A DNA stretch of 64,000 nt from a virus. Its lineage: Duplodnaviria > Caudoviricetes. A program made the position numbers and the translations under genes. Under the pieces are notes generated by a model. The model searched no databases. It was given only the letters and a program-made list of their open reading frames with translations, and was not told where the DNA came from. Where the stretch lies: positions 1-64,000 of the IMG/VR virus record IMGVR_UViG_3300022824_000016. The stretch is one strand, 5' to 3'. Positions 15,143-42,897 of the stretch are shown here, in pieces (the stretch's first letter is position 1; each line of letters begins with the position of its first letter).

Positions 15143-15532
15143 TTAATGCCCTTTTTCATATCCTTCACTATGAAGATAACTAATTCGGTTCATTTTGGTT
15201 TTGTCCGGTCGCTGATCATAGATTTCCAAATGTCGACGCAAGAATTCTCGATTTAGATTGTTTCTGGCATTGGCCATTTGATGAAGGATGTGATTGCGCA
15301 GATTAGAGCGGATCGGACCTTCAATCATTTCTCGCTGCTCATCTTCCATCTGAATTTTAATTGCTTCCTGTTTTCGCATGCGTTCTGACCACACTTCCGC
15401 ATCATGCGCAGAGTTACAAACAATCTTCTCAAATCCATAAGGAGCTGGATAGCGCTCAGGAAGTCCCATACGGATCTCTCCGGTTGTTCCGTCATACCAG
15501 TAAACTATTTTTGTGCTTAGTTGAGAATTCAA
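15143..15532 (-). CDS. Hypothetical protein
   Basis: Start overlaps the terminase stop (ATGA coupling). Confidence 0.6.
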   Translation of the reverse strand: MNSQLSTKIVYWYDGTTGEIRMGLPERYPAPYGFEKIVCNSAHDAEVWSERMRKQEAIKIQMEDEQREMIEGPIRSNLRNHILHQMANARNNLNREFLRRHLEIYDQRPDKTKMNRISYLHSEGYEKGH

Positions 15533-18500
15533 TTCATTCCTCCAACAGAAACCTTATTCACAGAGCATGATTTCAAAACCAACGGCGGCATTTTTTCCTG
15601 TGGCAAAGCGTACCGCTTTTGCGCTCGGTCCGCAAGAATATCAAAATCATGTGCAGTAAAAAACGATTGTGCGGCGGCGCGTACACGATCATCATGCTGC
15701 CCGCTTCGATGTTCCATCTTGGATATTCTTCCAGCCGCCGCATGGCGTTCCAGAGTTTTCAATTCCTCAATCAACCATTTTGATGACGGTCGATACCAGC
15801 CACCATTAACAGCTTCCGTAAAGCGTGTCATCAGAATAGGCACACTCCATACGTTAGAAAACCATCCTTGTTTTTTTCCTGAATCGTCTTTGATCTTTTT
15901 GCTGTCATAACGCCGTGGAACATGGTGCCAATGGAATCCCATCAGCTTGAGTTGATGCTGGCATGTATCACCAGGACGTCCAATTTGTTCCACGCAAAAT
16001 TTTACGCCGCGTGAATCCTGTGTATTCTCTCCATACCAGGCTGCCATGCAAGCCGCGAATCCCACGATCTGCGCAGAGTTGATCCGGTTCGATGTCAGTT
16101 CGGCAACCTGATAATCGAATTCATCGCCAAATCGATTCCGTGTCATTGATACGCAGGTTCTGTCTTCATCTTCTTTGCCAAGTCCATCAGCCGTATCGAT
16201 TCCGCAACTGTAGCTATAACCGGCTTTGGGTTCTTCGTACACCAGAAACTTGTCAAAGGTCTCCGTCTCAATTTCTTCGTTAACCGGCAAAAGTGGAATC
16301 AGCACCCACTTGTATTGCTGACCGCGATCTGAATTCCAGAGAATCCGTATACGGTCTTTATCATAATCAATGATCGATTCGTCCGGCTCAAAACCATCAT
16401 CGATGGAATCGCCGGTAATCGCATAAGCTTGAACCGGTTTCTTTCTTTCTTTTGTATCGCCTTCCACTTCATAAACATGGTTCTCAATTTCCTGAATTGT
16501 TTCAAGATCAAAAACGCTGTCGTGGACTCCCGTTAAAGCTTCAAAGTCATCGGCTGCCATCTGAGCCAACCAGATTTTTTGGGTGTGGTTCTTGCAAGCC
16601 TGAAGATAATTGAACTCCCAAAACCATTGCTGTTCAATCGGCATCCTCCAGTCTGCACCCACTACATTAGCCAGATAGGGAGTATTGCGAATGTAGAGTT
16701 CGCAACGCTGCACGTGCTTCCGCGTTACCTCCTGCCGCTTTCTCATAAAATCGGCAGGCACAGGAAATTTACGCACCCAGTCTGGCTCCGGATACAGATC
16801 CGGAACCATAGCCCAGGGAATAAATACCGGGCAAAGCCGGGACTGTCCTTTCGGCCAATCAGCTTTTGCCGACCGCCATGTATTTGCCAACCAGCCAGTA
16901 TTGCCTCCTCCAGTTCCTTCAAAAACCATGAACAGGTTGCGCGACGAGTGGGTGGCACGCAGCAGACCTTCCTCAATTACCTTTTCCGGTTTGGGAATAT
17001 CAGCGAGTTCCGACACATGAATACAGTTATGGACAGAACACTGCAATGTGGTGAAAGAATGCGCGGCATCATTTATTTCCACGTCGTAGAACGATTCGCT
17101 AAATCCTTCATCAACTTTTTCGATCTTCACATCAATTGCTGAACCATCTTCGTTGTAATGCCAGTGACGAGCTTTTTCGTGGGAGGGAATATGTTCAAAA
17201 TTGAGGGCCATTCGATAGCGATAGCCACACATCCCCACCATTACAAGTTTCCAGGTTTCGCGCTTTTTACCACCCCATGGTGATTGCATAGCTGCCTGGT
17301 GGTAGATCGATGCCCATCCGAAACCCAGTGAAGCCACCAAATCGCGCATCTGAAGCGTGATGGCTTCGCAGATACAGGGAGCAATGACGTGATTGGAGTT
17401 TTTTTCGCAGTGGCCATCGCCATCGAGATAGCCCTTCAAGAGATAAAGGCAAAAATCGCGGCCTGCTGTCCAAATCCAATCTGGTACATGCTTGTCGTAC
17501 TTACGACCAAAGTTTTCTGCCAACCAACGGGCCAACCATGCACAGGAAATGCAAACCTGTGAACCGTTTTCACCGTGATTCTTTGTGTGTATGTATTGGT
17601 CTTCGCCTAGCACTGCTTTGATTGCTGTTTCAGTTCGTATAGCCTCACGACGATGCACGGTGAAAGTTACTTCCGACAAATATGGCTTTTTGTTGAGTTT
17701 TCCTATTCCGCTTTCATGGCATGATCCTTCAGCAAGATAAAGCCCGGCAAGGTAGGCAACTACCGGCGAATACGTCAGTTCAAATTCAATCGCATGCGCT
17801 GCATCGATCTTTCCGCGCAGCATTTTTTGTAATGGTTCCCCATCGTTTTCAGCGCGGATTTCGCGGACTGGATAACGTACAAAATCGCCTACGCCTAAAT
17901 CTTCTGCTTCGCACCAACCATCAGGAGTCCAGATGCGATGGTCGAGCGTTGATTCAAGCGGCTGATAGCATCCCCATAGCTTGAGTATCCGTGTCGGTTC
18001 ACCATGACGCGAAGTTTTGAAGGAACACTTTACTGCTGCCAATCGACCATCATGGGTCAAAACCCGGTCGCCAAGCGCAAGATCCTCAATGGCTTTTACA
18101 CCACCATTAGCAACGCGTACAGGTGTACCCGGTACCAGGCAGGTCGGTGTCCAACCTTGTGCAATGCCGGTGGCCTGCATACCAGACTGAATCGAAAGGA
18201 CCGAACCATTGTCGTAGGCACCCTTCGGCAAGCGCCGCGGCACCAACCACCAGGGACAACGATTATAAGCCGTGTCCAAAATGCGACCGATCAATTCCGA
18301 CTTATCGGATTGCACGGAAGCCATCACGGCCTGAGTATGCGGAACAAAGAGTAAACGATGAAGGAATTTAAGCGCAGTTTTTGTTGTGACGCCAACCTGT
18401 CGCGCCTTGAGAATCATCAGTTCGATGGAGACCTGTTTTTCGTCAAAGCCAGCAATAACTCCATCAAATATTTTCTGAGATAATCGATTTTGGAATTTAA

Positions 18501-18795
18501 AGATCTGGCCTTTTTCGTCGCAGACCCAGGCATAGCGACTTTCAAAATAGCCGGAGTCCAGACCGCAAAGTGCTTGCTCGTTCTCGATCCAGCGCCAGAT
18601 TTCCTTTTGACGTTTCTGCGTGATGGGACGTTGCAACGTGACATAAGAGGACCGGGAGTTGCTCTCGATCTTAACCAGAGAATCAATGTACTGCTTAAAT
18701 TCCTGTACCTGTTCCAGTGAATGATAAACAGGCATCCAGCCTTCGAGGGCTGCGAATTCGTCCAGATTGCGTAATACAATCCGTTCGCTATACAT
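15529..18795 (-). CDS. terL: Terminase large subunit containing an intein
   Basis: Walker A-like ILKARQVGVTT, Walker B CIHVSE, EGTG coupling motif, nuclease GIDTADG and HDDRV. Confidence 0.9.
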   Translation of the reverse strand: MYSERIVLRNLDEFAALEGWMPVYHSLEQVQEFKQYIDSLVKIESNSRSSYVTLQRPITQKRQKEIWRWIENEQALCGLDSGYFESRYAWVCDEKGQIFKFQNRLSQKIFDGVIAGFDEKQVSIELMILKARQVGVTTKTALKFLHRLLFVPHTQAVMASVQSDKSELIGRILDTAYNRCPWWLVPRRLPKGAYDNGSVLSIQSGMQATGIAQGWTPTCLVPGTPVRVANGGVKAIEDLALGDRVLTHDGRLAAVKCSFKTSRHGEPTRILKLWGCYQPLESTLDHRIWTPDGWCEAEDLGVGDFVRYPVREIRAENDGEPLQKMLRGKIDAAHAIEFELTYSPVVAYLAGLYLAEGSCHESGIGKLNKKPYLSEVTFTVHRREAIRTETAIKAVLGEDQYIHTKNHGENGSQVCISCAWLARWLAENFGRKYDKHVPDWIWTAGRDFCLYLLKGYLDGDGHCEKNSNHVIAPCICEAITLQMRDLVASLGFGWASIYHQAAMQSPWGGKKRETWKLVMVGMCGYRYRMALNFEHIPSHEKARHWHYNEDGSAIDVKIEKVDEGFSESFYDVEINDAAHSFTTLQCSVHNCIHVSELADIPKPEKVIEEGLLRATHSSRNLFMVFEGTGGGNTGWLANTWRSAKADWPKGQSRLCPVFIPWAMVPDLYPEPDWVRKFPVPADFMRKRQEVTRKHVQRCELYIRNTPYLANVVGADWRMPIEQQWFWEFNYLQACKNHTQKIWLAQMAADDFEALTGVHDSVFDLETIQEIENHVYEVEGDTKERKKPVQAYAITGDSIDDGFEPDESIIDYDKDRIRILWNSDRGQQYKWVLIPLLPVNEEIETETFDKFLVYEEPKAGYSYSCGIDTADGLGKEDEDRTCVSMTRNRFGDEFDYQVAELTSNRINSAQIVGFAACMAAWYGENTQDSRGVKFCVEQIGRPGDTCQHQLKLMGFHWHHVPRRYDSKKIKDDSGKKQGWFSNVWSVPILMTRFTEAVNGGWYRPSSKWLIEELKTLERHAAAGRISKMEHRSGQHDDRVRAAAQSFFTAHDFDILADRAQKRYALPQEKMPPLVLKSCSVNKVSVGGMN
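17026..18141 (-). mobile_element. 372-aa intein with LAGLIDADG endonuclease in terL
   Basis: T|CLVPGTPVRV ... STLDHRIW ... YLAGLYLAEG ... LLKGYLDGDG ... FYDVEI ... SVHN|C. Confidence 0.92.
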
Positions 18796-36053: not shown

Positions 36054-36151
36054 TTTACGTCCTCATGGGAACAGTCCAGAATCCGGACTTTTTCAATTAT
36101 AATTGCGGGCGTGAAAAAAACAGTGTATATTCCCTCTGCTGGAGGAAATCC

Positions 36152-36913
36152 ATGGCAAAGCTGCATGAACTGTTGGCCGTGCTGAGCAACCTGAGCGGCC
36201 AGGCTACCAAAAAGCGCACAGACCTGAAGACGACTTTTGACAAAAAGCGGCATCTCTTTGAGGAAACGCGCAAGACATTTACGTCCAATGATGAGCAGGA
36301 AAAACCACAGGTTGAAGAGCAGAAGGATATTCAGTCGACTGTGATCGGTGAAATCTCCTGGATCAGACCCGCTCTGGCAAAGGCGCTGGATGTGGCTTAC
36401 CAGATAGACGTTGCCAATACTGAGGCCAAAGCTGATGTGGTAACGGAAGATGGCGATATTTTGCTGAAAGAAGTACCAGCAACCACATTGCTGCAGCTGG
36501 AAAAGCGCGTGGCTGAATGGAAGGATTTGATTCAGGCCATTCCTACCCTTGATCCAGCGAAGGGCTTTCAGCCGGATGAAGCGCGAGGAAAAGGCTATTA
36601 CAAAGCACGCGATGTGACGAAGCCACGCACAAAGAAGGTACCAGACGTGATTACGCTGGCACCGGCTACCAAAGAGCATCCGGCTCAGACTCAGTTGATT
36701 TCGGTGGATAAGCCAGTTGGCACGATTTTGGAGCAGGAATGGAGTTCTCTGATTACGCCTGCAATCAAATCAGATCTACTGGATCGCGTGGAAACATTGC
36801 TGCGCGCTGTGTCCAAGGCTCGTTCCAAGGCCAATGACCATGCGGTTGACACGCACGACAAAAAGATTGGGGCGGAGTTGCTGGACTTTGTTTTTCAGCC
36901 GCTCGGTTCCTAA
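36152..36913 (+). CDS. Conserved uncharacterised protein (family with KL..L.AV N-terminus, LL.LEK, RTKK...A.AT.EHPAQ)
   Basis: GGAGG RBS; motifs recalled from a widespread actinobacterial/phage hypothetical family. Confidence 0.75.
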   Translation: MAKLHELLAVLSNLSGQATKKRTDLKTTFDKKRHLFEETRKTFTSNDEQEKPQVEEQKDIQSTVIGEISWIRPALAKALDVAYQIDVANTEAKADVVTEDGDILLKEVPATTLLQLEKRVAEWKDLIQAIPTLDPAKGFQPDEARGKGYYKARDVTKPRTKKVPDVITLAPATKEHPAQTQLISVDKPVGTILEQEWSSLITPAIKSDLLDRVETLLRAVSKARSKANDHAVDTHDKKIGAELLDFVFQPLGS

Positions 36914-36916
36914 AAG

Positions 36917-37013
36917 TTTGGGTGGGGCCGAAAGGTCCGATCCAGGCTCAGACTCAGACTTGTACGCAGACTCAACTCCGGCATCTGAAAGCCGGATCAG
37001 ACTTTCACCCAAA
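36917..37013 (+). ncRNA. Y-RNA-like element (Ro60-type helix)
   Basis: Ends pair (TTTGGGTG/CACCCAAA); GGTCCGATCC pairs with GGATCAGACT leaving the second C of GGUCCGA unpaired. Confidence 0.55.
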
Positions 37014-37038
37014 GGTTTATCGCAGTAAACGATAGCGA

Positions 37039-37157
37039 ACCGGGCGAAACTTACGAACGGAAGGCGCGGGTTCGAATCCCGCAGGGCGCCCCAAAAAAAT
37101 ATGCGCCCTTGGCTCAGGGGTAGAGCGTCTGCATCAGATTAAAAGTTTCGGGCTGGT
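37039..37157 (+). ncRNA. YrlA-like circularly permuted tRNA mimic
   Basis: T-arm GCGGG-TTCGAAT-CCCGC, then loop-closed acceptor AGGGCGC/GCGCCCT, then D-arm GCTC-AGGGGTA-GAGC, all enclosed by a long stem (CGAAACTT/AAGTTTCG, ACCGG/CTGGT). Confidence 0.75.
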
Positions 37158-37179
37158 AAGCAAGGCGTGCTGCACAACC

Positions 37180-37252
37180 AATCGACTAGCTCAGTTGGTA
37201 GAGCGTCTGACTTGTAATCAGAATGTCGCCGGTTCAAATCCGGTGTCGATAT
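37180..37252 (+). tRNA. tRNA-Thr(TGT), no encoded CCA, 1:72 mismatch
   Basis: ATCGAC/GTCGAT acceptor, TAGCTCAGTTGGTAGAGC D-arm, TCTGA-CTTGTAA-TCAGA anticodon arm, GCCGG-TTCAAAT-CCGGT T-arm. Confidence 0.85.
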
Positions 37253-37257
37253 TCGTA

Positions 37258-37294
37258 GGGCCGTCCGCGCGGAAGCGGGCGGCCCATTAATTTT
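37258..37294 (+). terminator. Terminator after the ncRNA/tRNA cluster
   Basis: GGGCCGTCCGC-GCGGAA-GCGGGCGGCCC followed by an AT-rich tail. Confidence 0.7.
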
Positions 37295-37375
37295 GGATCA
37301 TGTTTTTGCATTGAAAATGCCTGCACCTGTGCGGCAGCGCTATAATTACGCACGTGACAAACACAGAGGCATGAC

Positions 37376-37468
37376 ATGTCAGGTGTAAACGTAAAAGACG
37401 TTACCGGATTTTTTATGCTTCTGCTGTTTTTTGTTTTGGCGATGCTTTCCAGGAATAAGCGAAATTAA
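37376..37468 (+). CDS. 30-aa hydrophobic peptide (not in the ORF track)
   Basis: MSGVNVKDVTGFFMLLLFFVLAMLSRNKRN*; AGAGG RBS; TATAAT about 35 nt upstream. Confidence 0.5.
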   Translation: MSGVNVKDVTGFFMLLLFFVLAMLSRNKRN

Positions 37469-37572
37469 GCCGTTCCAGAAAAGTGGACAGCTTTTCAATT
37501 GTGGCATTTAGATGTGTTATTTTAATTGCGCGCATCGCATAAAATCAATAAACTGTTTGCGAGGAGTTTGCG

Positions 37573-39834
37573 ATGATTCAACACTTAACCTACGATGACA
37601 CCTATGTTTATGTGCATGCCGCTGATACGTCGCTGAAAACCACCAAAGCCTTTACGCATGGCACGATTGTTTTTGATATAACATCGCGCACGGTGGTTTT
37701 TGGAAATCTGGACGCCGTGGAGATTCCAAAAGGTCTCATTCTTGAAGCAGGCAAAACGCTCACCTTTCAACTGGTGGGGTCCAACGGCAAATTGCGCCCG
37801 CAGACTCGCTCCGGCGCATTGCTGGGGAATGAGAAACATCCGGAGCTGCTGCGTGTGTCTGGCATGGCAAAGACACCACGCCGATTTGCCGCTGAAGACG
37901 GTTGGGGAAATGCAATCTATAAATTCCGCGCCTACTTTACACATCCCGGAATTGACATGACCTCCGACGGACAGTTCAAAAAATTTGAAGATCTTCCTGA
38001 GTGGCTCAGAGGCTGTATTGAAAGACAAAAAGCGTTATGGAACCGGCTGGCGTGGCTTTGCCGCGATGCGCGGAGAAAATGCTCTCCGGTTTTGCCTGAG
38101 CAGATCGCAGAGTTTGTGGCGAATACAATCCTGCCAGAGATCGATGCTTTCAATCTAACGCGGAGCAGAGACAAAACCAAAGAAAAAATGCGGCACCCAG
38201 CTAAACTCAAAATAGCAGCACCCGGCGTGGACGGGTTGTGGAGTTTTGTTGGCGAACTGCGCGGGCGGATCGAAAAAAAACTCCCGGTACCAGATGGGCT
38301 GCTCGAAAAGGTGGTGGAATATGCCGAACAGTTTAAACCAGACTATACGCCACTGAATGAGTTTATGCGCGACTTTACAGAGATTGCTGAAAAAGAGGCT
38401 GTGGCATTGGGACTGAAACGCTTTGAGATCCGGCCTACTGTGAGCGCCTTCAAAGCAGTTCTGGACCGACGTAAAACTACCGCAGCTTCCTGGTCAGAAG
38501 GCTGGCCATTGATCAAATATCCTGACGGCCCCAAAGCTGGCAATTGGGGGATACATTATTACTTCAACAAGGCGGGTGTAGGTTCAGAACTTTTTGAAAA
38601 CGGCCAAAATATACCGGGCATATGTGCAGGTCCGGCTTTTCAGCCTGCGCAGGGGGGCAGAGGAAAAGACACCATCTCTTTCTTCCAGCCTTTCGGCAAA
38701 ATATCTGTTGTTGGCACAGTGACAAAACGAGCCCTACGTCCAGTAGTGATTTCGATTCCTGCAGAGAAAGGAGAGCGATGGGATTTTCATTTTTCGATCA
38801 TGGAACACCGCGCTTTGCCGCTTAACTCTCACATCAAGGAATGGAAACTGATCTATCAGGATGGCAAACTTTGGCTGTGTCTGGTAGTTGAATTGCAGCG
38901 TCCAATTCCCAAAAAGGACTCACTTGCGGCGGGTTTGGAAATTGGCTGGCGGAGAACGGAAGAAGGTATCCGTTTTGCCACGCTTTACGAACCGACAACG
39001 AAAAGCATCTGTGAAGCAACAATCAACTTTCAGCGATCTCCCAAAGATCACAAAGATCGTGTCCCGTTTCGCATTGACTTGGGTCCCACACGATGGGAGA
39101 AACGTCATATCACTGAATTGCTTCCAGATTGGAAACCGAAAGATGCAATTCCCAATGTGATTGAAATACGAATGGTTTTAGCCGCACGCTGTGATTATCT
39201 GAAAGATACAGCCAAAATTCGGCTGCGCAAGCATCTGGGCGAAAATACGCCGCCATGGCTGGAGAAAGCCGGAAGCAACGGTTTGCACAGGCTGGCGCAG
39301 GAATTTATGGAAGACACTACCGTTCAAACCATTGTGAACGAATGGGAGGCAAATAATCGGCGAATTGCAAAATTGTCTGCTTTTTATTTTGCTCAAACAA
39401 CCGAGCGTTTGGAATACGCTCAACTGCAGGTAGCACACGATATTTGCAAGCATCTGCAAGCGAAAGGCATGGGACGGTTGATTTTGGAAGAAAATTTTCT
39501 GTCCAAAATTGCGCAACGGCACGACAATGAAGATCCCGAAAGTCTGAAGCGGTCGCAAAAGTATCGGCAGTTTGCAGCTCCAGGTAAATTTGTTTCTGCA
39601 GTAAAGATGATCGCAATGAAGTATGGAATCGCAATAGAGAGTCGCGAGAACATTAACCTCACACGTATATGTCATTACTGCGATCATCTGAATCCGTCCA
39701 CCGAAGCAGAAACACTTATCTGTGAAGGGTGCGGACGGGAGATCAAGCAGGACCACAACACGGCCATTAATCTCGTGCGCTTTGAAGATCTTGAACTGGC
39801 GGAAAAAGCACTGCACGCCGGAAGCAAAAAATAG
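37573..39834 (+). CDS. cas12m: Type V CRISPR effector, Cas12m-like (V-M/V-U1), with N-terminal extension
   Basis: HRALP, GLEIGWRRTEEG (RuvC-I), LILEE (RuvC-II), FAAPG, CxxC...CxxC Zn finger, QDHNTAINL (RuvC-III); GAGGAG RBS; abuts cas4. Confidence 0.75.
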   Translation: MIQHLTYDDTYVYVHAADTSLKTTKAFTHGTIVFDITSRTVVFGNLDAVEIPKGLILEAGKTLTFQLVGSNGKLRPQTRSGALLGNEKHPELLRVSGMAKTPRRFAAEDGWGNAIYKFRAYFTHPGIDMTSDGQFKKFEDLPEWLRGCIERQKALWNRLAWLCRDARRKCSPVLPEQIAEFVANTILPEIDAFNLTRSRDKTKEKMRHPAKLKIAAPGVDGLWSFVGELRGRIEKKLPVPDGLLEKVVEYAEQFKPDYTPLNEFMRDFTEIAEKEAVALGLKRFEIRPTVSAFKAVLDRRKTTAASWSEGWPLIKYPDGPKAGNWGIHYYFNKAGVGSELFENGQNIPGICAGPAFQPAQGGRGKDTISFFQPFGKISVVGTVTKRALRPVVISIPAEKGERWDFHFSIMEHRALPLNSHIKEWKLIYQDGKLWLCLVVELQRPIPKKDSLAAGLEIGWRRTEEGIRFATLYEPTTKSICEATINFQRSPKDHKDRVPFRIDLGPTRWEKRHITELLPDWKPKDAIPNVIEIRMVLAARCDYLKDTAKIRLRKHLGENTPPWLEKAGSNGLHRLAQEFMEDTTVQTIVNEWEANNRRIAKLSAFYFAQTTERLEYAQLQVAHDICKHLQAKGMGRLILEENFLSKIAQRHDNEDPESLKRSQKYRQFAAPGKFVSAVKMIAMKYGIAIESRENINLTRICHYCDHLNPSTEAETLICEGCGREIKQDHNTAINLVRFEDLELAEKALHAGSKK

Positions 39835-40470
39835 ATGGAGGACGATGATTTCATTTTGATCTCTGCGCTACAGCACTATAGCTATTGCCAGCGTCAGTGT
39901 GCATTGATTCACGCAGAACAGAGTTTTGCGGATAACGTGCACACGGCGCGAGGCAACGCGGATCATAGATTCGTCGATCTGGAAGGTTATGAATCACATG
40001 CAGATGTGCATATCGAACGAGCACTTCCTCTGGTTTGTGAGAAGATCGGTTTGCGTGGAAAAGCCGATATTGTCGAATTTTTCTCTGACGGTTCAGCCTA
40101 TCCCGTCGAGTACAAACATGGTGTGCGTCGCCCGCAGAATCATGACGACATACAACTGGTTGCCCAAGCTCTCTGCCTTGAAGAGATGACTGGCCATGTT
40201 GTACCGTTTGGTGCAATTTATCACATCGGTAGCCGTCGAAGACGCGAAGTAAAGATCACAGATGAATTACGCCAACAGGTGGTTGACATAACTCAGACAA
40301 TTCGGGAAATGCTGCAATCAGAAAAGATGCCACCTGCCCCCAACGATGCTCGTTGTACTGAATGCTCACTGATTGAAATCTGTCAACCGCAAATGCTTGC
40401 AGAACAAGTGAAACGGCAGACTTTGCGCAAAAATTTGTTCAGCGTGGAGGATGATTGCAGATCCTGTTAA
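39835..40470 (+). CDS. cas4: CRISPR-associated protein Cas4 (I-C-like)
   Basis: ISALQHYSYCQRQCALIH, GKADIVE, PVEYKHG, QLVAQALCLEEM, C-terminal CxxCSLxxxC. Confidence 0.95.
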   Translation: MEDDDFILISALQHYSYCQRQCALIHAEQSFADNVHTARGNADHRFVDLEGYESHADVHIERALPLVCEKIGLRGKADIVEFFSDGSAYPVEYKHGVRRPQNHDDIQLVAQALCLEEMTGHVVPFGAIYHIGSRRRREVKITDELRQQVVDITQTIREMLQSEKMPPAPNDARCTECSLIEICQPQMLAEQVKRQTLRKNLFSVEDDCRSC

Positions 40471-41486
40471 ATACTCTTTATCTAACTCTGCCCGGCTATC
40501 TGCATTTAGATAACGATACCTTGCGTTTTGATGTGGAGCGAATTACCCGTTTGCGAGTGCCACTACATCACATTGGAGGCGTTGTCTGCTTTGGCGACGT
40601 GCTGGTTTCGCCTGCGGTAATGGGACGGTTAGCCGGAGAAGGAAAGTCGTTGGTATTTCTTGATCGGAATGGACGCTTTAAGGCTCGTCTTGAAGGACCA
40701 GTCAACGGCAATATTTTGCTACGTAAAGCACAGTTTGCGCATGCTGATTCGCCAATGTTTGTCTTGGCACATGCCAAAGCCTGCATAGCGGGTAAACTGA
40801 AAAACAGCCGTTGCGTGCTCTTGCGTAGTGCACGCGATGCTGGCGAAGAAAGCGATGCCGAACGACTGCGTGAAGTTACGAAATCCATTGCTGTCAATTT
40901 GCGCTCTCTGGAGTCGGCACCAACGCTCGATGTTGTACGCGGTCTAGAGGGTGAGTCGGCTCGCTGTTATTTTGCGGTGTTTTCTTGTTTAATTCACAGG
41001 GAGCAACGTGCAGCGTTTACGTTGGATGGCCGGAGTCGCCGTCCACCACGGGATCGGATGAACGCATTGCTTTCCTTTCTCTACAGCATGGTGATGAACG
41101 ATTGCCGCAGTGCGCTCGAATCTGTTGGACTTGATCCGCAACTTGGTTATCTTCATACTGTGCGTCCTGGACGTGCATCATTGGCTCTTGATCTGATGGA
41201 AGAGTTTCGTTCCGTTATCGCAGATCGGCTAGCGGTTACTTTGGTCAATCGTAAACAAATCCAAGCAAATGATTTTGAAGAACGACCAGGTGGCATGGTG
41301 CAGTTACGGGATGCTGCACGCAAGACGCTGGTTCTTGCTTTTCAGGAACGCAAGCGAGATCTTACTTCCCATCCATTGCTTGATCAAAAGTTAACCATAG
41401 GATTACTACCTCAGATTCAAGCGCGACTATTGGCCCGTGTTATTCGTGGTGAAGTCGAGGACTATCTTCCTTATTTGGAGGGTTAG
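40455..41486 (+). CDS. cas1: CRISPR-associated endonuclease Cas1 (type I-C-like)
   Basis: LLNTLY...[55 protein letters not shown]; TTG start. Confidence 0.97.
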
Positions 41487-41488
41487 CT

Positions 41489-41779
41489 GTGCTTATTTTG
41501 GTGTGTTATGACGTAGCGACGGATACCCCACAAGGTCGAAGACGCTTGCACCGAGTGGCTAAAACTTGTGAGGCTGTTGGCCAGCGAGTACAGCGGTCAG
41601 TTTTTGAATGCCATGTAAACCAAATAGAATATGAGAAATTGGAACGGAAGCTGCTGGATGAAATTGATCCTTTGGAAGATTGCTTGCGCTTTTATCGGTT
41701 GACCGAACCGTTCAACCAACATTTGAAGGAATACGGTAAATTCAAGGCATTCGATTTTGATGGACCATTGATTGTGTGA
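41489..41779 (+). CDS. cas2: CRISPR-associated protein Cas2
   Basis: LVCYDV...RRL.RVAK.C...GQRVQ.SVFEC...D.LRFY. Confidence 0.97.
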
Positions 41780-41964
41780 ACCTGTTTCCACGAACCAGAA
41801 GTGACAGACAAAAGGCGGGAGGTTCGCGGAACGCGGAAGTTTCCTGTTTTCAAGGAGATAAGTATGACATACCAATTTTGTGATTATGGAAAAGATGTGG
41901 AAAAGACGAGGTTCGCGATTTCCACAGGACAAACCATTGATGCTATTATGTTTTTAGTGCCGAA
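41780..41964 (+). promoter_or_regulatory. CRISPR leader
   Basis: Between cas2 and the first repeat; contains GAACC...GAGGTTCGCG twice, a pattern common in leaders. Confidence 0.65.
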
Positions 41965-42718
41965 GGCACAATGAACATAAAGTGCATCGCACAGATGCAA
42001 CATGCCCTGATTCAGCACTTCAACGCCCACAACCTATCGGCACAATGAACATAAAGTGCATCGCACAGATGCAACAGAGAAAGCTACAGTTCGATCAACG
42101 ATGCTAGATCGGCACAATGAACATAAAGTGCATCGCACAGATGCAACTGTGAGGCTCGCTGGCTCACGGCCCTTCGTGATAGGCACAATGAACATAAAGT
42201 GCATCGCACAGATGCAACTCAGCAGCGTGCGTCTGGAGCGGCAACAATACCGGGGCACAATGAACATAAAGTGCATCGCACAGATGCAACTTATCCGCTG
42301 CTGTGCCAACAATACTACCCGACTGGGCACAATGAACATAAAGTGCATCGCACAGATGCAACGTAATCTGTCTGCTCCTGAACAGCACTATTTCGCGGCA
42401 CAATGAACATAAAGTGCATCGCACAGATGCAACCAGAACTACTGGTGAGTTCACTGCCCATTGATCTTGGCACAATGAACATAAAGTGCATCGCACAGAT
42501 GCAACCAGAACTACTGGTGAGTTCACTGCCCATTGATCTTGGCACAATGAACATAAAGTGCATCGCACAGATGCAACTGATAGCGTGCGCCGCCCTGCAT
42601 CGCAGGTCCGCGGCACAATGAACATAAAGTGCATCGCACAGATGCAACTGAATACCATTCCAACGTTGTTGCGTGATCCAAGGCACAATGAACATAAAGT
42701 GCATCGCACAGATGCAAC
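41965..42718 (+). CRISPR. CRISPR array: 11 identical 37-bp repeats GGCACAATGAACATAAAGTGCATCGCACAGATGCAAC and 10 spacers (33-37 nt)
   Basis: Repeats start at 41965, 42039, 42111, 42182, 42254, 42326, 42397, 42469, 42541, 42612 and 42682; spacers 7 and 8 identical; 3' hairpin TGCATC-GCACA-GATGCA-AC. Confidence 0.99.
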
Positions 42719-42897
42719 CCTCTGAAAAACACGGTTCCGTTGTTTGATGGGAATTTATAGAATTACCAATATATTTTCTTACAGAAAGTTCAATAGAGAA
42801 TTTTGAATTCATCAAATAAAAAAGATTTTCTCTGAATTTTTGAACATTAAAAAATCTACGTGAAAAAAATGCCATCGTGATCGCATCCATTGTCTAC

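Follow-up and report, generated by a model that had tools for sequence, protein, structure and literature searches.

A circularly permuted, anticodon-less tRNA mimic encoded behind DUF7873 genes in phages and bacteria

Positions 37,039 to 37,157 of the phage DNA analysed here carry the arms of a tRNA in permuted order, and the question raised by this locus is whether they form a genuine RNA, to which family such an RNA belongs, and what it might do. The window, 64,000 nucleotides in length, covers the opening 64 kb of a provirus record from IMG/VR that measures 78.6 kb and is 59% complete. We confirmed that the segment is a real, transcribed RNA domain of permuted tRNA shape without an anticodon, and it makes up the 3′ part of a longer non-coding RNA, ~260 nt in all (36917 to about 37179); its fold and family assignment are near certain. 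For the whole, we lean slightly toward the account that this RNA is a Ro60-independent, YrlA-like tRNA mimic that partners the DUF7873 protein encoded upstream and is handled by tRNA-processing enzymes.

The DUF7873 gene, the RNA, an ordinary tRNA-Thr gene and an intrinsic terminator form one unit in that order (Table 1), with the RNA directly 3′ of the DUF7873 gene on the same strand and the terminator closing the unit; the DUF7873 open frame itself opens at 36065, and its stop codon occupies 36911-13. Processing of the 5′ end of tRNA-Thr would fix the 3′ end of the mimic RNA. The tRNA found behind the mimic is Thr (UGU) in the window and Arg (UCU) in the 91%-identical nearest relative, L005 (5038-5110); the anticodon loops of the two differ at one base, and position 1:72 of the acceptor stem is unpaired in both.

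Table 1. Features of the DUF7873-RNA-tRNA unit and parts of the permuted head, in window coordinates
Feature	Position	Strand	Evidence or remark
DUF7873 gene	36152..36913	+	Pfam PF25283, 226 bits; 253 aa if begun where homologues in databases begin
RNA 5′ domain	36917..37013	+	closing helix kept in 4 relatives; metatranscriptome contig starts; alignment A1
Small linker hairpin between both RNA domains	37018..37036	+	folds; kept in L005
Permuted tRNA-like domain with closing helices	37039..37157	+	Rfam alignment, fold, covariation
tRNA-like core: anticodon-stem analogue, 4-nt variable loop, T-arm, closed acceptor stem, D-arm	37056..37133	+	model R1, covariation
Acceptor loop	37090..37102	+	sequence, family counts
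Ordinary tRNA-Thr (UGU)	37180..37252	+	ARAGORN; Rfam tRNA 63.9 bits
Intrinsic terminator of the DUF7873-RNA-tRNA unit	37258..37296	+	11-bp stem with 10 G-C, then T run
Outer closing helix	37039-37043 with 37153-37157
Inner closing helix	37045-37052 with 37143-37150
Anticodon-stem analogue, 4 bp	37058-37061 with 37128-37131
T-arm	37066-37082
Acceptor 3′ strand	37083-37089
Discriminator C and CCA	37090-37093
Acceptor 5′ strand	37103-37109
D-arm	37112-37126

The permuted order claimed in the earlier note (T-arm, acceptor 3′ strand with CCA, 13-nt loop, acceptor 5′ strand, D-arm) held in full, with every element where it had been placed. The loop that joins the two acceptor strands is 13 nt long if the discriminator C and CCA are included, and these are followed by an A-run and by UAU at 37100-02 (positions -3 to -1 relative to the 5′ strand). 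The note's further claim of an anticodon stem extended into a long closing helix is also backed by relatives, which revealed a 4-bp analogue of that stem, absent from the single-sequence fold; the closing helices sit past an asymmetric internal loop, and the inner one differs from that of L005 by one A-U to G-C double change.

The proof of this structure comes from covariation. Alignment A4 holds 25 homologous cores, the window and 24 relatives matched column for column, and 93.5% of its cells are paired, a figure that is biased upward for three of the helices, which served as the selection rule for the sequences. Both-sided, compensatory changes were observed at 21 of the 22 base pairs, and the covariation score was 0.893, compared with 0.238 after shuffling (none of 500 shuffles reached 0.893) and 0.13-0.17 with slid partners. 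The anticodon-stem analogue stood outside the selection rule and is nonetheless paired in 22-25 of the 25 sequences, where double changes are frequent. A covariance model built from A4 (R1) gives one match in the window, at 74.6 bits, a score reached by construction as the window is among the seed sequences.

Relatives were gathered through the upstream protein, which yielded 15 viral loci and, out of at least 571 bacterial loci, the 80 best. All 15 viral loci have one to three heads just 3′ of the DUF7873 gene. At these 80 best bacterial loci, a pattern scan that required a T-arm, a closed 7-bp stem and a D-arm returned 77 matches on the strand of the gene and 2 on the opposite strand, nearly all of them 50-500 nt downstream of the DUF7873 gene. 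With R1, at least one match lies just downstream in 83 of 92 DUF7873 loci, which span phages and more than ten bacterial phyla; no head was found by R1 at the other nine, which comprise two spirochaete loci and a Cytophagales group that accounts for most of them. An all-against-all comparison of the neighbouring open frames found no gene family other than DUF7873 common to the neighbourhoods. The linkage rate may be lower in distant relatives, since the 80 loci are the closest of at least 571, and the DUF7873 family itself occurs in at least 571 representative bacterial genomes and many phages. The window RNA thus belongs to a widespread family of DUF7873-linked RNAs with one to three anticodon-less, circularly permuted tRNA mimics, for which our literature search found no published account. 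Three R1 matches of 48-51 bits, ~520 nt apart, also occur on the Bernardetia chromosome (G008:C1:2738602-2739743), far from its DUF7873 gene, whose own locus is without a match.

Most DUF7873-linked relatives carry two heads, of which the second is of the class-I type; the window head, which aligns with the 24 relatives of A4, is of this type. The first head in relatives has a tRNA-Leu-like D-arm and a discriminator A in 35 of 43 cases. In the window no tandem pair with a tRNA-Leu-like first head is present, consistent with the single R1 match, and a hairpin domain stands in place of the first head, within the same closing helix, in the window and in three relatives (L005, L007 and L008). The phage lineage of the window therefore carries a one-headed variant of the DUF7873-linked RNA, a compact form (about 260 nt with a 253-aa protein) that suits experiments. 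Its 5′ domain is closed by a helix of 36917-24 with 37006-13, in which pairing is kept through two double changes among 4 relatives, and encloses a hairpin with a GAAA loop (36926-38), another hairpin (36978-95) and a hexamer that is present four times. The linker hairpin that follows is retained in L005 with altered loop and stem bases.

Two candidate features of the 5′ domain were set aside. The GAAA-loop hairpin was considered as a Ro60 site and ruled out; its stem compensates in L005, where the exact heptamer is lost. The short repeats were considered as a protein track and dropped, as their enrichment is modest, with 5 copies of the hexamer's core pentamer at this locus and 7 in L005 compared with ~3.7 in shuffles, and as no word other than the tRNA motifs is common to the whole family, the hexamer word varying by lineage. 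The four hexamer copies lie within 36949-37003, and a close variant is found in the internal loop of the head domain (37134-37139).

The protein partner offers few clues of its own. Database searches returned an identical 253-aa protein (P0001) and over 1200 homologues, all hypothetical, and no paper mentioning DUF7873 was found in the literature. An AF2 model (pLDDT 87) has four long helices and three long beta hairpins; Foldseek against PDB and BFVD gave nothing at E <= 0.001, and structure-library comparisons revealed no recognisable RNA-binding fold. The best match of the wide VIA-align comparison, a designed helical protein with Z 8.2, was rejected as a generic helical-bundle likeness, ESM Atlas features (0.81 to unnamed clusters) gave no lead, and the PDB sequence search, PHROGs, PADLOC and NCBIfam held nothing informative, with no PADLOC model matched. 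On the strict linkage between gene and RNA, we put the chance that DUF7873 binds the RNA at about even; the family gains a concrete, testable partner.

Evidence for expression was obtained from assembled contigs of the RNA libraries of one peat study, a form of data that gives neither the true ends nor the strand of an RNA. Within the 2.7 kb compared, two peat metatranscriptomes (X4 and X6) match only inside 36917-37091, and contigs identical to the window cover 36940-37091 and 36986-37089; one of the expression contigs has read length. Contigs of close variants begin at 36917, in X4 directly after Illumina adapter letters. In a third library (X1), one contig (36790-36967) spans the end of the DUF7873 gene and the RNA, and other parts of the region are covered too. 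The prospect raised in the earlier note that the element might be silent has thus fallen away. We read the contigs as an RNA that is made, probably in one transcript with the DUF7873 gene, and that accumulates beyond the mRNA. No contig covers 37092-37180, and none in X1 covers 36968-37180, although a gap in cover proves nothing; the identical contigs end 2 and 4 nt short of the A of CCA, and no contig crosses the loop. These ends are a weak hint of a 177-nt 5′ piece (36917-37093) and a short 3′ piece that might have been lost in library preparation.

The same data bear on the possibility that the RNA acts only in cis, as a 3′-UTR element with no role of its own, at which cutting by tRNA-processing enzymes sets and protects two ends, the 3′ end of the mRNA for DUF7873 and the 5′ end of the tRNA behind it (tRNA punctuation). 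Such an element could well begin 3 nt past the stop codon (36917), as the RNA does, and lie downstream always on the same strand; a search for a separate promoter found none, an RNA contig bridges the gene end and the RNA, and CCA with U at -1 would suit a processing signal. A cleavage signal would not, however, need 250-450 nt with as many as three heads, nor scaffold helices and an anticodon-stem analogue that are both conserved. Two RNA libraries show the RNA without the mRNA, and at most loci no tRNA gene follows it. We regard a purely cis-acting element as unlikely.

Relation to the bacterial Y RNAs is the next issue, as the earlier note had assigned the segment the architecture of YrlA. 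The Rfam YrlA model (RF02553) supports this with an end-to-end alignment, at 33.3 bits and a local E of 1.7e-5, though the gathering score of 69 bits is not reached and the model's second helix is deleted; a phage RNA beside a TROVE gene also scores only 39.9 bits with RF02553, so that the threshold is strict for distant members. As in YrlA of Salmonella Typhimurium, other bacteria and phages (Rfam RF02553; PMC4201824; bioRxiv 10.1101/312249), the order is T-arm, loop-closed acceptor-like stem and D-arm, with paired ends; in both, the stem at the anticodon position runs into a helix made by the two ends of the RNA, the T-loop and D-loop bases are tRNA-like, and both YrlA-type and DUF7873-linked RNAs occur in phages and bacteria. 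Moreover, R1 scores Ro60-adjacent YrlA-like RNAs at 50-61 bits, which places the DUF7873-linked and Ro60-adjacent sets in one fold class. The differences lie in the partner and in the details: YrlA is defined by Ro60 binding and encoded beside rsr, whereas no rsr is near the window RNA and its constant neighbour is DUF7873, and the window RNA is longer, has an extra 5′ domain and encodes CCA behind a full 7-bp stem.

These likenesses would be explained most directly if the RNA were a true YrlA, whose closing stem binds a host (or missing phage) Ro60/Rsr and whose head tethers an effector such as PNPase. The full-length alignment with the Rfam model, the R1 scores of Ro60-adjacent RNAs and the shared architecture agree with this, and are countered by the low Rfam score and the deleted helix. 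In YrlA, GNCGAAN0-1G on the 5′ strand of the closing stem is the Ro60 module (Chen et al. 2014, PMC4201824). Positions one to six of this motif are present on the corresponding strand of the window RNA (37043-48), a partial match, and the final G is missing; in L005 an A within the motif is changed, with a compensating change on the opposite strand, and 5′ of the family's heads the motif is not enriched (5 of 75, compared with 9 of 75 control stretches). No TROVE gene was matched in the 78.6-kb record, which at 59% completeness leaves room for one elsewhere in the phage or in its host, and none was found in two relatives among the phages whose completeness is 91% and 94%. The Ro60 tether proposed in the earlier note consequently finds no backing in either the motif or the gene content.

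Genomes that hold both systems are informative here. The related jumbo phage G002 has a TROVE gene 19 kb from its DUF7873-RNA locus, with its own YrlA-like RNA in front, and in Paraliomyxa a Ro60-adjacent YrlA-like RNA and the DUF7873-RNA likewise stand at separate loci, each with its own RNA, an arrangement that counts against a true YrlA. Among 54 bacterial carrier genomes of DUF7873, a TROVE gene was detected in 23 (43%) and none was found in 31, including one complete Bernardetia chromosome. In two carrier genomes TROVE lies within 1-6 kb of the DUF7873 locus; in Nonomuraea fastidiosa the two are 6 kb apart among housekeeping genes, and TROVE adjoins the locus in a Planctomycetaceae contig (L040). 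From the co-occurrence and from these distances, some functional tie between the DUF7873-linked RNA and Ro60 may exist. Nevertheless, the DUF7873-linked RNA shows no sign of requiring Ro60, and we consider a true YrlA quite unlikely. In our reading, the window RNA works like a YrlA-type mimic but stands outside the Ro60-defined family. Bacterial Y RNAs have so far been defined through Ro60; the same mimic design is here tied to DUF7873, which suggests that RNA-protein particles are built on permuted tRNA mimics more generally than has been recognised. Two details of these loci may be added: in G002, the YrlA-like RNA (L022, 735-880) has its own terminator and lies ~550 nt before a 580-aa TROVE gene, and in L040 (3761-6055) a TROVE gene, which has a permuted head of its own, is convergent with the DUF7873-RNA unit and within 2 kb of it.

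How a DUF7873-linked mimic might work is suggested by its processing signals. The window head combines a 7-bp acceptor stem, an encoded CCA and UAU at positions -3 to -1, and bacterial RNase P favours U at -1 and a 3′ CCA. Among 52 non-identical heads of the window type, CCA directly follows the discriminator in 19, where chance would give ~1, U stands at -1 in 33, and G is the first base of the stem (+1) in 43; most heads lack CCA, and a third have another base at -1. The best precedent is YrlA of Mycobacterium smegmatis, the only YrlA studied that shares the 7-bp stem (PMC4201824), which RNase P cuts both in vitro and in vivo, leaving two pieces in cells, one of them ending in CCA, with charging held possible by the authors (PMC4201824). 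In that RNA the two cut pieces stay together, the precursor is shared with a second RNA (YrlB), and CA is added after cutting, whereas the window encodes CCA; M. smegmatis YrlA is bound to Rsr and lies upstream of rsr, with no link to DUF7873 reported, whereas the neighbour in the window is DUF7873. On the stem, the encoded CCA, the UAU and this precedent, a putative RNase P site can be placed between 37102 and 37103, and the earlier note's alternative, in which RNase P and 3′ trimming could yield a two-piece tRNA-Val-like molecule, is the better-supported half of its proposal: CCA in register and U at -1 are enriched in the family, and the precedent exists. The valine identity is not supported. 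We judge RNase P processing of the head to have slightly less than an even chance, and the encoded CCA with an RNase P-type leader makes the locus a good system for studying the role of an anticodon-less mimic with a free acceptor end.

Put together, the RNA would be freed from the 3′ end of the DUF7873 transcript and would assemble with DUF7873 into a particle that needs no Ro60. Host tRNA enzymes may take the head for a pre-tRNA, since it retains the tRNA elbow, an acceptor stem of 7 bp, CCA and U at -1. RNase P would then open the loop at 37102/37103, and the 3′ end would be trimmed to the CCA at 37093, producing a nicked two-piece mimic with a free CCA end, joined by the acceptor and closing helices. 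By analogy with tethering by Y RNAs, the head might be a handle for recruiting or occupying a host factor that binds tRNA. A stronger version holds that DUF7873 and the RNA form an undescribed ribonucleoprotein, parallel to and independent of the Ro60/Y RNA particle, the heads of which become anticodon-less two-piece tRNAs whose free, possibly aminoacylated CCA end engages or blocks a host factor that recognises tRNA ends, as part of the phage tRNA toolkit; this we consider unlikely.

The mimic could instead serve counter-defence, absorbing toxins or sensors with which the host acts on the body or the CCA end of tRNAs and so shielding phage translation. It is set among phage tRNA genes, both here and in jumbo phages such as L008 (12 tRNAs), its elbow is intact, and it has the acceptor stem and CCA that such a decoy would present; phages also carry tRNA-repair and tRNA-replacement functions. 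The earlier note had named anticodon nucleases beside other tRNA-sensing defences, but anticodon nucleases would not be addressed by an RNA without an anticodon loop, which no relative has. The same gene-RNA pair is also found among housekeeping genes of Nonomuraea chromosomes and in numerous settings other than phages, no PADLOC model matches DUF7873, and a decoy does not obviously need a dedicated protein, all of which make this role improbable.

Still less probable is a split, chargeable tRNA or a tmRNA-like molecule, whose two pieces would be aminoacylated and used in translation or peptide tagging. Two-piece, circularly permuted tmRNAs were reportedly described by Keiler et al. in 2000 in alpha-proteobacteria and some cyanobacteria. 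In their genes the T-arm comes first, then the acceptor 3′ strand with CCA, a spacer that is excised and the acceptor 5′ strand, an order shared by the window head, and the tmRNA pieces are held by base pairing; the 7-bp stem, in-register CCA and U at -1 fit such a molecule as well. The hallmarks of a tmRNA are G3:U70, which serves alanine charging, a degenerate D region, pseudoknots and a tag reading frame. The window head has none of them, its pair 3:70 being G-C and its D-arm canonical; ARAGORN detects no tmRNA at the locus, and no tag reading frame is kept in the relatives. The seven nucleotides taken for a valine anticodon loop (37050-56) are not the same in L005, and the closing helix includes three of them in its pairs, which leaves the identification as tRNA-Val without support. 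No alanine, histidine or other identity set was seen in the head, and we know of no bacterial identity set that fits a discriminator C with U at -1. Permuted genes of the red alga Cyanidioschyzon merolae, reportedly described by Soma et al. in 2007, likewise encode the 3′ half of a tRNA first and join the halves through the acceptor ends. They give rise, via a circular intermediate, to normal tRNAs with anticodon loops, whereas the window head and all its relatives have a scaffold helix in that place. Charging has been held possible for M. smegmatis YrlA (PMC4201824), and aminoacylation of the window head is speculative.

A likeness by chance is already refuted, as is an origin from two decayed tRNA genes side by side, the other failing that the earlier note had allowed for. 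Although the single-sequence fold energy is unremarkable (z = -1.9) and tandem identical tRNA genes can imitate a permuted pattern (PMC4201824), every helix, the one between the two ends among them, shows compensatory changes, the place behind one gene family is kept across phyla, ARAGORN detects only the neighbouring ordinary tRNA-Thr, and neither ARAGORN nor the Rfam YrlA alignment places an anticodon arm on either side of the head.

Finally, the earlier note had drawn attention to the CRISPR locus next to the RNA, which begins at 37573 and comprises a Cas12-like gene, cas4, cas1, cas2 and an array of 11 repeats. The three closest relatives carry the Cas12-like gene (68% identity) and more distant carriers of the RNA do not. 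No anti-repeat was found in the RNA, the longest complement to the repeat within 36900-37572 being 7 nt, which is background level and lends no support to a role of the RNA in CRISPR. The adjacency is thus a lineage-specific accident and not a trait of the RNA. Within the CRISPR region (37573-42753), the effector is a compact Cas12-like protein of 753 aa with a weak TNB-domain match, and the array consists of 11 identical 37-nt repeats, with two neighbouring spacers identical; contigs of the closest relatives keep the effector, with no match to cas1 or cas4. Elsewhere in the window, a 1088-aa frame on the minus strand (15529-18795) has weak matches to Hint and LAGLIDADG, which suggests an intein inside a large phage gene.
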